DNA of 64,000 bases from an uncultured Hormoscilla sp. (GCA_963921275.4 OZ001293.3:832001-896000); one strand, 5' to 3'. Positions 2,848 through 62,881 are shown, numbered from the stretch's first letter. The notes: generated by a model from the letters alone, not told the origin. Numbers and translations are program-made.

Positions 2848-4683
2848 GTGCGATTCGTTCTAGCCTAACGTAGTCAAACACGGAACGCTAGTCTAGGAAA
2901 CTAGAAACTCTGGTACTCATTATTGTTAAATTCCCCTCCCTCAAGTGCGGGGGTGACACCGGTCCTCAATGCGGCGGAGCCACATCGCCGTGGTGTTAAG
3001 CGAGGACTCAAATGTAGGATAGCTGGTAGCCTAAGCCGGCAACTCCGCTAGGAAAGATGTATATGGCCAGAACAAGCAAACTCATGTAAGCCTCGTAACC
3101 ATCAACCAGCGAAATAAGGCTTTAAGCGCTGGCCCAAAAGGGGAAGTAGTTAGGGCGTGTCATCAGTTAAGCCAAACAACAGTAGCAGCCAGGTAGATAG
3201 CACCCAAGAAATTCTGAGCCCTCTTATCGTAACGGGTGGCAATGGCTCGATATTGCTTGAGTTTGGCAAAAAAATTCTCAATCAAATGACGTGCTTTGTA
3301 TAGATATTTGTCATAACGGCGTTGTTCTTTTCGATTGGATTTAGGCGGAATCACAGGTTCGCATTGCTGGGCTTCAAGACGTTTCAAAACCCGTTCGTCA
3401 GCATCAGAAGCTTTGTCTGCGAGTAACGCATCAGCCTTAATATTATCAAGTAACACATCAGCCCCTTCCAAATCGTGAGCTTGACCGGCTGTTAAATGAA
3501 AACCCGTTGGGTTCCCCAATGCGTCACAGGTCGCGTGAATTTTGGTACTCAAACCCCCTTTACGGCGTCCGATGGCTTGGTCGCAATCTTTTTTTTGAGC
3601 ACCTGCACTATGTTGATGAGCCCTTTATATCGTGGCATCAATCATCGCATATTCGTTATCGGCATCGGACGCAAGTACCTTGAATACTCTTTCCCATACC
3701 CCGGATTTTGACCACCTACTATGGCGCGTATGAATTACCCTCAAGTCCCCAAATCGCTCGGGTAAGTCCCGCCAAGGTATCCCAGCTCTATATCGATACA
3801 AGACAGCATAGACAAATAAGCGGTTATCCTTAGCTGTCCCCCCCACATAACCCTCCCGACCTGGCAATAGGTCCCTGATTCTCTCCCACTGGTCATCTCT
3901 TAAAGCATAGCGACGCATTTCTCAAATTCTCCTGCTCTAACCTTTACCCTCTTAGATCACACCAATATATCCTGGTTGTCAACTCAATCATCTTGTTATA
4001 TATTTTTGGTGGGGACCCATATCGTTAATCTAACTGATGACACGCCCTAGTATTGGCTCTTTGATTTTGGGCCAATATCGTACTCAAAGAACTGCCGGGG
4101 TAAAGTGAGGGCCTAAAGACATCGTGAAATGATACCGGGGAACGAAGTAACCCTACGTGTGCTGTCCGTCAGGACCAGTCAGATGTGCGTCCGCGTAGCG
4201 TGCGCGCAGCGCATAGCGCACGCCACGTATGGGAGAGATGGCCCGAGAAGCTAATGCCTGGGCGACGTCTGGAGCATGCCGCGTCCTTCAGGACAAGAGC
4301 ATGCTCCAGACGTCGAAGGTGTCTGGAGCATGCCGTATCCCTTGCGGGAGCGCCAGCCGTGTCCTTCAGGACAAGAGCATGCGGAAGACGCCGAGTAATG
4401 CCCACGGATACGCAGACGCGGGTCGGTGATATTAGGAAACTACTGATGCAAGTAGCCTTAAGACGTCATAAGCCCGTCCATATTGTGGATGAGGAATGAA
4501 TATCAAGGGGCAAACGTGTAAGTAGCAAGGGACAACGGGAGTAATCCTTAGTAATTCTACCCATGATTTGGGCCTGATACCCAGTAGCCGTGTGCGGTGA
4601 AAGTCGCATGCACGGTTCCGTTCGCGCAGCGTGGCGCAGCCATACGGGAGGGTTGAGAAGTGATTCTCAGCTCGACCCCTAAT
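2848..4683 (+). mobile_element. ORF-less group IIB intron A, carrying an IS5 in domain I and small repeats in DII, DIII and the DV-DVI linker
   Basis: GTGCGATTCGTTC 5' end. DV is TAGCCGTGTGCGGTGAAAGTCGCATGCACGGTTC. The 3' end is CTCGACCCCTAAT. EBS2 ACCATCA pairs perfectly with exon TGATGGT. Confidence 0.92.
3153..4047 (-). mobile_element. IS5-family (IS427-like) element; transposase 3918-3163 with an internal TAA
   Basis: TIR GGGCGTGTCATCA with a TA(G) duplication. Transposase motifs WRDLPERFG and IENFFAKLKQYRAIATRYDK. Near-identical copy at 13668. Confidence 0.93.
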
Positions 4684-4970
4684 CAGACGAGCGAGAAAAT
4701 GAACCTACAATTCCCTGGAAAGAAGTGAAACGATCTCTAGAATCGAAGAGGAAGTTAAGTGTCTGATTATCCGATCATTTTTACGCGGTCTGCTCAAAAA
4801 GAACTGAATTCACTACCAATTGAAATCAGTAGTAGACTCAGTTCCAAGATTGATGCTTTAGTCAATGAACCCCGTCCTGTTGGCTGTCTGAAGTTAAAGG
4901 GTAGACAAAACCAATGGCGAATTCGGGTTGGCGATTATCGAATAATCTACAGCATTGATGATGATACTTT

Positions 4971-7390
4971 ATTAAACTAAGCCAGTACGTCACCGTACCG
5001 ACTCGTCTTCAAAACCGGACGTGAGACTTTCACCTCATCCGGCTCCTCAGTTTCGTCATCCTTGTCATGGATACGGCCTTTGCTGCCATCCCTGGCAGAT
5101 TTATAATCATGGCAGTAGTCGTGCAGCAACTGTAGGTTGGAGTACCAGTCCTTACCTCCCAGTGAGGTTGGCAGGATGTGGTCCACTTCCCATTTGTCGC
5201 CGTCCTTAAACGTTAGTCCGCAATGCTGGCACTTGCCATCCTGCCTCTTGAGCAGGTTAATCACTCTCATGCTTACGTCCGGGCTCTTTCGTAATCTCTG
5301 GCTCCAGTAGACTAGGTTACCGTCAAGCGGGCTAGCTGTTCCCTTTACCTTTGTGTGTCTGATTATTTCAGTTTCAGAGTGCCGGATTAGCTTTATTTCT
5401 CCTTTCTTGGATTTACCGATGAACCTCCACCGGTCCTTACCGGTCATGGCCCAATAATTTTTGGCAATCCATTCGCCCGATTTATTGGGATGCCTTCTCT
5501 TTGCCCATTGCCACAGCAGCTCCCATAGGTAGCTATCCATGTCGCTGTAAGTTTCCTTACTTACCACCGTCTTGAAGTAGTTGCTCCATCCCCTTATCAT
5601 TGGGTTTAGTTTGACTATCAAGGCTGTCTGTGGTGCCGATTTATGGCGGCGAACTATCTGTGATAGTTGCTCTTTATGATTCCTAATGGATTTATCGCTA
5701 GGCTTGATTAGGGTCTTGAATCCTAGGGGGGTTCCGTTGCTGAGTTTGCCGCTTCTGTGTTTCCCTACTTTGTATTGTCGGATATTGAACCCTAGGAAGT
5801 CAAATCCGGGGTTTTCTCCTTCCAGTGTGTGGGATATCCTGGTTTTCTCGGCTTTTAGCTCTAGTCCTATTCCCTTCAACCACTCCTCAATCACTCCTTG
5901 TGCTCGCTCAATCATTGACCGGTCATCGTGCATTACCACAAAATCATCGGCGTACCTGACTATCGTTAGTTTCTTTTCCTCTCTCTTTGTGCGGGCAAGA
6001 CTCATCACTACCTTTTCCAACCCATGTAGGGCTATATTGGCTAGCAATGGTGATATTACTCCGCCTTGAGGAGTTCCGGCTTCTGTGTCCTGCCATATTC
6101 CCTGGTCCATCACCCCGGCTTTTAGCCATGCCCGTATCTATCTACGGATTGGTGATGTTGTATTCAATTTCTCTAGGAGCGCTGAGTGGTCAATTTTGTC
6201 GAAACATTTCGCAATATCCGCATCTAACACCCATTTTGGTTTCTTGTTGGTGCTGGTGAATATCGTTTCGATCGCATCGTGGCATCCCCTTCCTGGTCTG
6301 AATCCGTAGGAATTGGCTTCCATGTACGCTTCCCATTCGGGCTCAAGCGACTGTTTGACCAATCCCTGAAGTGCGCGGTCGTGCATCGTCGGTCTTCCTA
6401 GTGGCCGCTTTTCGTCCCTTCCTGGCTTAGGTATCCATACACGCAGTGTAGGTTTCGCCTTTGCCTTCCTGGATACTCTGAGCTGACTTACCAGTTCCAG
6501 TCGCTGCTCCATAGTCAGTGCTTTCACACCATCCACACCAGCCGCATTCTTTCCTTGGTTTTGTTGTGTTACCTGTCTCACCGCTATCATCTTCGTGGAC
6601 CATGACCTATTTAGTAACCCTTGGAGCTTGCGAACTTTCCGCTTGTTGCCTTCCTGTGCCGCTCTGTAAATTCGCTTTTGTAGCTTGAAGACATGGCTGG
6701 CGCCACGCTAGCGCGATCGGCGCTCCAGCTCCTGCCAGGGCACCTCCTTCCATTCATACTCTTGCTTTTCGGCTAAGTTCCGTGACATATTAACTACTAC
6801 TCACAACTTCACAATTGACAAAACCGTGAGGGCGTCAGCTTATCCCATCCATTACAGATAGGCGTTTGCTTCTCCACTCAATCTTTCCCAGCTATGACCT
6901 GCCAAATGAGAGCAGATGTTGCGTCTTTGGTGACTACTCCATCTATCGACCGGTGATGGAGAGTGCCTAGCTGGGTTACTTCGTTCCTACAGATGATTAA
7001 TCGTAGTTTTAGATGGATTCTATATGCCGGGTTTGTTGTCAGTGCTTATTAGTCGGATTACAACCGCTAATGACCATTATCCTTTCCCTTTTGGGCCAGT
7101 GTCTCAGCCTTATTACACTGGTTGATGTTGACGACACTTATGAACCTTTGCTTGCGCTCATCATGACTACTTGCTCGACGATGACCGGTTTAGGCTACCA
7201 GTTAGAGCGCCTTTCCTTCCCGCTTTACGGATTGATGCCATCGCTACCGTCGGGAGGATGCTGTCACGAGAGCACATGGAGGGGTGGGCTTTCACCACCA
7301 TCATCTGTAAGTTGTCAGGGCTATTGAAACCCTGCTAGCGGTCCCCTTTCTTGACACGTGTCAAGTCATTTTACCCTAAACGAATCGCAC
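4971..7390 (-). mobile_element. Group IIB (CL-like) intron B with an RT-maturase-HNH ORF
   Basis: GTGCGATTCGTTT start on the minus strand. DV is GAGCCGGATGAGGTGAAAGTCTCACGTCCGGTT. Canonical end ...TTAGTTTAAT. EBS1 TGTAAT pairs with exon ATTATA. Confidence 0.95.
4977..6788 (-). pseudogene. ltrA: Intron-encoded reverse transcriptase/maturase/HNH endonuclease with two in-frame stops
   Basis: GTPQGG, YADD, GFDFLG and HNH (EVDHILP...NLQLLH..CH) motifs. One TAG at 6138-6140; a second at 6708-6710 lies inside a 24-nt inserted repeat. Confidence 0.9.
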
Positions 7391-61913: not shown

Positions 61914-62010
61914 TGAAGCTGTTGCTTGACGAGTGCCTACATAAAAATTTAAACCGAGAGTTAGCGGAGCCTACCGTTATCACTGTACCAAAGCCAACCT
62001 ACAGGAGCCT
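61914..62010 (+). pseudogene. DUF5615/PIN-like 5' remnant
   Basis: MKLLLDECL start, truncated at intron H. Confidence 0.5.
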
Positions 62011-62881
62011 GTGCGATTCGTTCTAGCCTAACGTGGTCAAACACGGAACGCTAGCCCGGTTTCATTAGCCGGGAACTCTGACCGCATGGGGGTTAAATTC
62101 CCCTCCCCCCAGGTACGGGGGTGACACCGGTCCTCGGTGCTACGAAGCGACATCATCGTGGTGCTAAGCGAGGACTCAAATGTAGGATAACTGGCAGCCT
62201 AAGCCGGTGACGCCGCTAAAAAAGATATCCAAGGTTAGAGCAGGCAAACATGTGCAAGCCTCGTTATAAGGAACCAGCGAAATAAGGCTATATGCGCTGG
62301 CCTAAAAAGGAAATGGTAGCTAGTATTAGTTTTAGACTCTGGCTAATATAGTACTCAAATAGCTCCCGGGGTATAGTGTGGACCTAAAGGTATCGCGAAA
62401 TGTTGTTAGGGAACGAAGTAACCTCTCGTGTGCTGTCCATCAGGACAAGTTAGATGTTAAGCGCAAGCCACGGGGGGAGGGATGGCCCAAGAAGCGAATG
62501 CCCGGGGTAATTCCTGGGATAACATCTACAGTAATGTAGATGATGCTGGGTAGCCAGCGCTGACGTGGGTCGGTGATACTAGGAAGCTGCTGGAATGAGT
62601 AATCCTAAAAAGCCACGGAACTAATCCGAAACGCAAGTGGAGGATAAGGTATGGATAACTGGTAAAACTGACTTGAAAATGGTGATACTAACGGTTATCA
62701 GAACAACCACTCGCTAAACCAGGAAAGGGAAGAAAAGACAGGCGGCAAGGGCTAACGGAAGTAATTCCTATTAAGTCTACCTATGAAAAGGGCCTAGTAC
62801 CCAGTAGCCGGATGCGGTGAAAATCGCAAGTCCGGTTCCTCAAGGGAGGGTCGGGAAGCGATTCCCGGCTCGACCCCATCC
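62011..62881 (+). mobile_element. ORF-less group IIB intron H
   Basis: GTGCGATTCGTTCT start, DV present, end CTCGACCCCATCC. EBS1 AGACTC pairs with GAGCCT at 5 of 6 positions. Confidence 0.92.

Follow-up and report, generated by a model that had tools for sequence, protein, structure and literature searches.

We analyzed a 64-kb stretch of DNA (64,000 nt) from an uncultured Hormoscilla sp. (GCA_963921275.4 OZ001293.3:832001-896000), here called the window, and found eight group II introns, seven of which lack an open reading frame (ORF) and constitute one family. These seven introns are probably non-autonomous delta-ORF elements of a Thermosynechococcus-like lineage, spread and spliced by reverse transcriptase (RT)/maturase proteins acting in trans.

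The eight introns and the ORF-less family

The introns were numbered I1 to I8 by position, and the letters A to H of a preliminary description of the window are assumed to run likewise. DI to DVI denote the six ribozyme domains, and HMM denotes a profile hidden Markov model of the family, built from 15 full-length copies.

2848..4683 (+): I1, ORF-less; sense in a small ORF lying upstream of a ParE-like toxin gene; HMM positions 1-328, 311-588, and 749-907
4971..7390 (-): I2, ORF-containing, of a different subfamily; 2420 nt; antisense in the 3' end of the ParE-like gene
9823..10749 (-): I3, ORF-less; in sense within a response-regulator/PP2C (SpoIIE) gene; replaced 3' strand of DV
16632..17545 (+): I4, ORF-less; sense in nrdJ; six domains all present
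29988..30932 (+): I5, ORF-less; ends 45 nt upstream of the DUF3110 start, same orientation
38307..38874 (-): I6, ORF-less, truncated; antisense in a DUF6399 gene fragment; broken DV
46026..46860 (-): I7, ORF-less; sense, close to the 3' end of a DUF4157/eCIS-core gene
62011..62880 (+): I8, ORF-less; intergenic, 414 nt past the stop of an EAL gene, same orientation

The count of eight introns in 64 kb given in the preliminary description was borne out by the 5' motif, the DV pattern, Rfam, and the family HMM; its start coordinate of 2848 stands, whereas its end coordinate of 62881 is corrected to 62880. The 5' motif GTGCGATT(C/T)GTT occurred exactly at eight sites (2848+, 7390-, 10749-, 16632+, 29988+, 38874-, 46860-, and 62011+) against a chance expectation of 0.58, and all eight introns begin with GTGCG, in agreement with the group II 5' GUGYG. 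A family-specific DV-plus-linker pattern gave seven matches in the window and none in 100 shuffles. Rfam RF00029 scored at or above its gathering score at five sites (4971-5047-, 17467-17544+, 30854-30931+, 46027-46104-, and 62803-62879+; 44.4–58.5 bits) and reached 38.6 bits, against a threshold of 40, at 4586-4617+ in I1. RF00029 had no match at I3 and I6 even at E ≤ 1, and the Rfam D1–D4 families had no match in the window at E ≤ 1. At E ≤ 1e-3 the family HMM found exactly eight elements, without extra fragments and without nesting (twintrons) among them. A ninth 5'-motif site, at 60057 with one mismatch, was judged not to be an intron. The total intron DNA amounts to 9315 nt, or 14.6% of the window. 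The surroundings are cyanobacterial in character, with HIP1 GCGATCGC sites, approximately 49% G+C, and the genes asd, ribBA, coaBC, tamB, and nrdJ. A plant-organelle origin, prompted by a DV match to plastid ndhA, was excluded by the long bacterial ORFs, the HIP1 sites, and the ordinary bacterial gene families.

I1 and I3–I8 form one family with pairwise identities of 69–85%. All copies share the 5' terminus GTGCGATTCGTT and the 3' terminus CGACCCCGACY. The 3' end was set by frame restoration in four host ORFs, and its last two bases are mostly not the usual AY. The seven ORF-less introns measure 568–945 nt, except for one of 1836 nt that holds a 901-bp insertion sequence (IS), which upholds the earlier statement that seven copies lack an ORF. 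The RT gene is absent from all seven copies, and no consistently open reading frame was found inside the family introns.

The consensus structure was calculated with RNAalifold from 15 full-length copies, five from the window and 10 from related loci. It comprises 189 pairs, in which DI, DII, DIII, DIV, DV, and DVI were recovered, and 102 of the 189 pairs showed compensatory double changes. These changes point to selection acting on the RNA structure of the family. The number of broken consensus pairs was 0 in I7, 2 in I8, 5 in I4, 9 in I5, and 14 in I3; six of the nine in I5 fall in DII, the site of an inserted short dispersed repeat. A DV hairpin with an AGC triad, a 2-nt bulge, and a GNRA loop was present in six of the eight introns and absent from I3 and I6, in which the lower DV helix is disrupted. 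All seven family copies have a DVI whose bulged A lies 8 nt from the 3' end. I4, I5, I7, and I8 have a canonical DV and DVI, with fold z-scores from -3.4 to -4.1, and DV/DVI of I2 gave 58.5 bits with Rfam and a z-score of -4.95.

Each copy carries exon-binding sites (EBS) that fit the intron-binding sites (IBS) of its own 5' exon. The EBS1 candidate is a terminal loop (alignment columns 358–366) that paired with the last six bases of its own exon at a mean of 5.6 of 6 positions, with 6/6 in nine of the 15 copies and 5/6 in the other six. The mean with exons reassigned among the introns was 4.35 ± 0.19, and none of 100000 permutations equaled the observed 5.6. The EBS2-IBS2 fit was weaker, with a mean of 4.67 of 5 for own exons and 3.83 for non-cognate exons; the permutation figure refers to EBS1 only. 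The insertion sites all differ among the copies. The matched EBS1 at differing sites therefore indicates that EBS divergence came first and that the copies then reached their sites by reverse splicing.

In regards to the origin of the family, I3 and I4 could be aligned to I2 across the start codon of I2's intron-encoded protein (IEP), so that the region around the start of the lost gene is retained. In addition, HMM positions 1–606 matched I2 with an E value of 4e-37, covering DI–DIII and the 5' end up to the start codon. The family is therefore best understood as a delta-ORF derivative of an RT-encoding intron. The RNA scaffold of the RT intron had been called divergent, and this description holds: the HMM gave 121 bits on I2 and 716–865 bits on five full-length copies.

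Exact excision from GTGCG through CGACCCCGACY opens four host ORFs, namely nrdJ, the response-regulator/PP2C gene, the eCIS-core gene, and the small ORF at I1.

9412..11499 (-): response-regulator/PP2C gene; exon 1 11499-10750, exon 2 9822-9412; joined ORF of 386 aa, open
16310..20697 (+): nrdJ, class II ribonucleotide reductase, RTPR type; exon 1 16310-16631, exon 2 17546-20697; joined ORF of 1157 aa, open
45871..48748 (-): eCIS-core (DUF4157) gene; exon 1 48748-46861, exon 2 46025-45871; joined ORF of 680 aa
3151..4051 (-): IS4/IS5-family insertion sequence in I1; ORFs match DUF4096 and DDE_Tnp_1

The nrdJ junction after excision reads ...WIGGT|EWIKQ.... The predicted junctions are ...YEV|YNQ... 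in the response-regulator/PP2C gene and ...ACK|QVV... in the eCIS-core gene. For the response-regulator/PP2C gene, the SpoIIE profile continues across the junction, with positions 3–68 in exon 1 and positions 68–190 from the first codon of exon 2. The deposited eCIS-core protein P0121 (46817-48748 -) runs into I7, and its last residues are translated from the first intron bases; the public annotation therefore misses this intron. Homologues of the eCIS-core protein share only the N-terminal ~47% or less and so give no check of the I7 junction. Excision of I1 leaves an open 75-aa ORF spanning the junction, and removal of I6 restores the frame of the DUF6399 fragment.

I4, I5, I7, I8, and the ribozyme of I2 look competent, as judged from their sequences and predicted folds. 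The other three copies are badly damaged: an IS splits I1, DV is broken in I3, and I6 carries a large deletion. The 901-bp IS lies beside the EBS1 stem of I1, which also has 22 extra nt between DV and DVI; a second copy of this IS is located at 13666-14567 (99.8% identity over 902 nt). I6 (copy F) lacks HMM positions 406–750, which confirms its reported loss of DII–DIII and shows that the 5' half of DIV is gone as well. The sense copies C, D, and G had been credited with all domains in apparently functional genes. This applies to D (I4) and G (I7) but not to C (I3), which has the right length, but in which three of the eight lower DV helix pairs are broken, the GAAA tetraloop is gone, and the 14 consensus pairs noted above are broken. 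Because three of the eight copies, among them the sense copy I3, are defective, it is unsafe to take all host genes as alive. The response-regulator/PP2C gene may be newly dead despite both of its exons being open.

I3 and I6 share the same lesion: the 3' strand of DV is replaced (GTCGC-TCTTCAGG), which breaks three of the eight lower-helix pairs, and their DV/DVI folds are no better than those of shuffled sequences (z ~ +0.4). The identical 8-nt patch was also found in one of the 27 family copies from the Hormoscilla loci listed (L017) and in one further copy outside the window on a 6.88-Mb contig (P0241), the latter judged from an antisense translation. The four sites are at 9870-9881(-) and 38353-38364(-) in the window, at L017:307-318(-), and in the protein P0241. 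A single clade of DV-variant copies was ruled out by a DI tree, which covers the copies available as DNA and thus not P0241 (protein only) and leaves I3, I6, and the L017 copy (L017b) ungrouped. The DVI stems differ among all four copies, and I3, I6, and L017b each have their own matching EBS1/IBS1. A partner sequence for the variant patch was searched for in the same RNA, and none was found. Gene conversion between copies would be the simplest idea for the patch.

Putative trans-acting proteins, relatives, and rival explanations

I2 is the only intron of the window with an IEP gene.

4977..6788 (-): I2 IEP pseudogene; RT, maturase X (GIIM), and HNH domains; 603 codons

The two stops noted earlier in this ORF were found as in-frame TAG codons at 6710-6708 and 6140-6138. 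An uninterrupted ORF in DIV encoding RT, X, and endonuclease (En) domains is thus lacking both in I2 and in the seven ORF-less copies, and no intact IEP is present within the 64-kb window. The first TAG lies, together with a HIP1 site, inside an 8-residue insertion relative to the homologous protein P0002, and at the second TAG P0002 has Q. Read-through of the TAG codons was ruled out by this Q and by the absence from P0002 of the insertion that holds the first stop. The closest solved protein to the I2 IEP is the T.el4h maturase/RT (6ME0_C, E 6.5e-107), and this nearest-neighbor similarity is the only lead that would place the I2 IEP toward class CL/IIB1.

Short GC-rich dispersed palindromic repeats (D17, D18) were observed in DII and DIII of I5, where they are inserted in the loops, between DV and DVI of I1, and in the I2 protein gene, whose first stop codon comes from the insert. 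They are located at 6708-6740, 4621-4645, 30460-30490, and 30560-30640, and also at 882-1732 and 39869-45202.

Beyond the window, full-length relatives of the I2 protein were found. Of its 120 best homologues, 17 clusters, with 37 member sequences and one contig each, map to a 6,879,066-bp contig, and the eCIS-core protein P0121, which is 100% identical to the window ORF, lies on a 6,879,066-bp contig as well. Three of the 17 clusters appear to be of full length and contain RT0, YADD, and the usual C-terminus: P0002 (596 aa), P0018 (591 aa), and P0034 (588 aa). P0061 (554 aa) has RT0 and YADD without the usual C-terminus, and each of the other 13 clusters is cut short at its N- or C-terminus. 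P0002 has 88% identity with the I2 read-through product, and P0001 is 99.6% identical over 537 aa. The absence of a working maturase, stated in the preliminary description together with a proposal to look for intact genes, therefore holds for the window and not beyond it.

A genome scan with the family DV pattern gave at least 25 loci, comprising 24 distinct ~6-kb regions with at least 27 DV matches. The loci listed all come from four Hormoscilla metagenome-assembled genomes (MAGs), and none of them is the window (identity 93.6% or less). None of the 27 family DV matches listed has an RT gene inside the same intron, and RT pieces occur beside family copies only in L013, L016, and L022 among them; L022 contains an I2-like intron with an intact IEP of 608 aa. 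More than one group II element was present in eight of the 24 regions listed, with several cases of nesting. Among the matches listed, nested copies occur in L009 (= L019; L009:3152-4949), L016 (L016:1795-4382), and L025 (L025:2605-4408) and probably in L017 (L017:10-1999).

Two different outer introns hold identical inner copies, inserted antisense at one and the same point (HMM 319/320, next to the EBS1 stem), and in one Hormoscilla MAG locus the insertion point of an ORF-less copy coincides with the very start of an IEP gene. Five copies in one Hormoscilla MAG are identical over the first 400 nt (DI) at five different sites, and their identity indicates recent mobility of the ORF-less element in that MAG. 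Furthermore, two subfamilies, (I8, L014) and (I5, L008, L018), are common to the window and the Hormoscilla loci, with 100/99 support. The diversification of the family is therefore old, or introns have been exchanged between genomes.

These observations favor the following model. An internal deletion in an RT-encoding intron would have left a ribozyme of DI–DVI with a DIV stub around the lost start. The EBS1 and EBS2 loops would guide reverse splicing of each copy into a new site, and an RT/maturase/HNH protein supplied in trans by ORF-containing relatives on the ~6.9-Mb chromosome would copy the intron into DNA. The same proteins would serve as a common splicing factor that removes the copies from the transcripts of nrdJ, the eCIS-core gene, and others, so that a few intact driver proteins would suffice for many non-autonomous introns. 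I2 would itself belong to these ORF-containing relatives, with a protein gene that has since died. By analogy with known systems and from the presence of full-length paralogues, we infer that these proteins splice and mobilize the ORF-less family in vivo. The preliminary description had left the choice between a trans-acting maturase and self-splicing undecided; the retained IEP-start region and the full-length paralogues make a trans-acting maturase the best reading.

Several points weigh against this model. No pair of copies in the window is more than 85% identical, so that these copies give no sign of recent mobility within this genome. The DV patch, present in at least four copies of at least three lineages, is unexplained by a simple active-master model, and the defective I3 sits in a still-open ORF, which fits neither a state in which all copies are spliced nor one in which they are long dead. 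The contig of the RT paralogues was taken as the replicon of the window from the equal number of base pairs, not from sequence. The introns that encode the full-length proteins are of the I2 type, and their RNA resembles that of the ORF-less family only distantly (121 versus at least 716 bits). Moreover, some IEPs of Thermosynechococcus elongatus are described as intron-specific, so that cross-reactivity is not guaranteed.

Self-splicing of the ORF-less introns in vivo without a maturase, with the RT paralogues relevant only to past mobility, appears improbable. It would agree with the complete and well-conserved ribozyme domains of I4, I5, I7, and I8 and with a 64-kb window that holds no intact IEP; however, the retained IEP-start stub would be needless for a protein-independent ribozyme, and group II introns usually need non-physiological salt for self-splicing, which also counts against it. 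In addition, the ORF-less introns of Trichodesmium needed a trans-encoded factor in E. coli, as stated in parts of PMC4649490. We consider it very unlikely that the copies are relics, none of them spliced today, and that nrdJ, the response-regulator/PP2C gene, and the eCIS-core gene are pseudogenes. In favor of such decay are the three clearly damaged copies, the dead I2 IEP, the 13 truncated RT clusters with P0061 in addition, and a deposited annotation that overlooks the intron in the eCIS-core gene. Against such general decay, the nrdJ exons join to an uninterrupted frame of 1157 aa containing an intein with both splicing regions, the compensatory changes affect more than half of the consensus pairs (102/189), EBS1 still fits IBS1, and I7 has no broken pair. 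Supply of RT/maturase proteins in trans is our preferred explanation.

The number of introns in the genome is a separate matter, because a local hotspot would concern the extrapolation and not the identity of the elements. The preliminary description suggested hundreds of introns if this density is typical, and a linear extrapolation of eight per 64 kb would give ~860 per 6.88 Mb. That the window is unusually rich and the genome holds tens rather than hundreds of copies is a real possibility, although we lean slightly away from it. The related loci show clustering, with two or more elements in eight of the 24 listed; three intron copies and three IS copies lie in the first 15 kb of the window; and the introns of T. 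elongatus are reported to favor other mobile elements as targets (parts of PMC2882425). In contrast, five copies, none nested, are spread over 16–63 kb among housekeeping genes (asd, ribBA, coaBC, tamB, nrdJ), the 37 RT member sequences all lie on one contig, and approximately 100 copies placed at random over 6.9 Mb would make eight per 64 kb very unlikely by our own, uncomputed, Poisson estimate. A search that used the antisense DV-DVI ORF of I4 as a proxy gave one protein among 15 candidates, which implies at least one more copy beyond the window; annotated spurious ORFs are too few for counting. The clustering in relatives urges caution; a large population is favored by the even spread of the five copies among housekeeping genes and by the 37 RT sequences. 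In our estimate, which was not computed, more than 100 copies in the genome is rather likely, and several hundred is doubtful.

We give very little credence to a more extreme scheme, in which DV, like the maturase, would be supplied in trans by sister introns so that copies with a destroyed DV come to be tolerated, the family would have undergone runaway proliferation to several hundred copies and more than one tenth of the DNA, and the DV patch, found once in a response-regulator gene that is still open, would be a first bacterial step toward a distributed, spliceosome-like apparatus.

Other features near the introns and in the window

The antitoxin-like small ORF and the ParE-like toxin gene (2703-4968 +) were struck by two introns, by I1 in sense in the first gene and by I2 in antisense in the second. 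The ParE_toxin profile matched at positions 1–74 of 89 at 4759-4968+, beside I2, and a paralogous fragment of the small antitoxin-like ORF is located at ~2360-2503. A third, different IS with a DDE transposase (7688-8705) adjoins I2, and copies 88–93% identical to it are present in the Hormoscilla loci L007 and L012. The LAGLIDADG intein of nrdJ lies in exon 2 (~18505-19636), so that this gene has one interruption in its RNA and another in its protein.

Tandem arrays with ~370- and ~291-bp units lie just upstream of the eCIS-core gene, and further arrays consist of eight 21-bp units and of 7/14/21-bp repeats after an M50 peptidase gene (arrays at 48813-50185, 50598-50798, and 34015-34144). A gene pair at 42735-44479 (+) matches the candidate defense system PDC-M38, with A an AAA_15/AbiLi-like ATPase (E 1e-90) and B a DUF3226 protein (E 1e-71). 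A 670-aa protein (39235-41247 -) has a weak match to the EACC1-associated caspase domain, and a 468-aa protein (58068-59474 +) consists almost wholly of ankyrin repeats.

Comparison with known intron-rich genomes

Bacteria rarely tolerate many group II introns, and T. elongatus, Trichodesmium, and Arthrospira are exceptions. These exceptions serve as working models for the spread of introns in early eukaryotes and for the dependence on shared splicing machinery. Sponge-associated Hormoscilla are the nearest named relatives of this lineage. No paper on Hormoscilla with group II intron or intron was found in the library searched, nor anything relevant on transposases or pseudogenes in Hormoscilla, and Hormoscilla and Gomontiellaceae are absent from all five supplementary files of a prokaryote-wide survey (PMC8919778).

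The closest parallel is T. elongatus, for which parts of the report by Mohr, Ghanem and Lambowitz 2010 (PMC2882425) describe 28 related introns, termed IIB1/CL relatives, that occupy ~1.3% of the genome, including 17 ORF-less introns derived from one ORF deletion. Driver IEPs mobilize the ORF-less introns there, the EBS sequences have diverged, and insertion into other mobile elements occurs. As in the pair formed by TeI3 (ORF-less) and TeI4 (ORF-containing), the ORF of the present family was deleted with N-terminal remnants kept, and the EBS sequences have diverged toward many targets with good IBS pairing. Both systems also have many broken and few intact IEP genes, copies interrupted by an IS, and ORF-less copies within IEP genes or other introns (in Hormoscilla, L016, L009, and L025). 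The analogy with early intron proliferation that was drawn in the preliminary description is not new, since the same argument has been published for T. elongatus (PMC2882425). The mechanism is already known, and what is new is the intron family and its host. [quoted passage not shown] The window family is also more diverged (69–85% identity) and carries a recurrent DV-breaking patch.

In Trichodesmium erythraeum, 10 of 17 spliced introns have no ORF and depend on a trans-encoded factor in E. coli, according to parts of PMC4649490. Like the window, Trichodesmium has introns in conserved protein genes and an ORF-less majority; it also has twintrons, its host and intron family differ by description, and the RNA evidence of splicing belongs to Trichodesmium (PMC4649490). 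In the plastids of Euglena, many group II/III introns are degenerate, maturases are few, and some introns have no DV (parts of PMC2882425). The Euglena introns are organellar, far more reduced, and far more numerous, whereas DV is defective in only two of the seven ORF-less copies here.

The published maximum is 101 group II introns per genome in Arthrospira platensis, with 6.79 Mb (bioRxiv 10.1101/2021.09.28.462093; PMC8919778). This genome, from a filamentous cyanobacterium of ~6.8 Mb with a CL-type expansion (Miura et al., PMC8919778), is comparable with the present one. However, Arthrospira has approximately one intron per 67 kb, all of them CL2A and none classed as "No IEP" in the parts of the survey cited here (PMC8919778), whereas the window has one per 8 kb locally, with seven of eight lacking an IEP. 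The public annotation reads through at least one intron, and gene models are thus wrong at such sites, here and in related genomes. The local density, which may be a record, is approximately eight times the published per-genome record, introns lie in conserved genes such as nrdJ, and non-autonomous copies outnumber autonomous copies 7 to 1; if this density holds genome-wide, the Hormoscilla chromosome would exceed all described bacterial chromosomes in intron richness and offer a natural system for work on trans-acting maturases.

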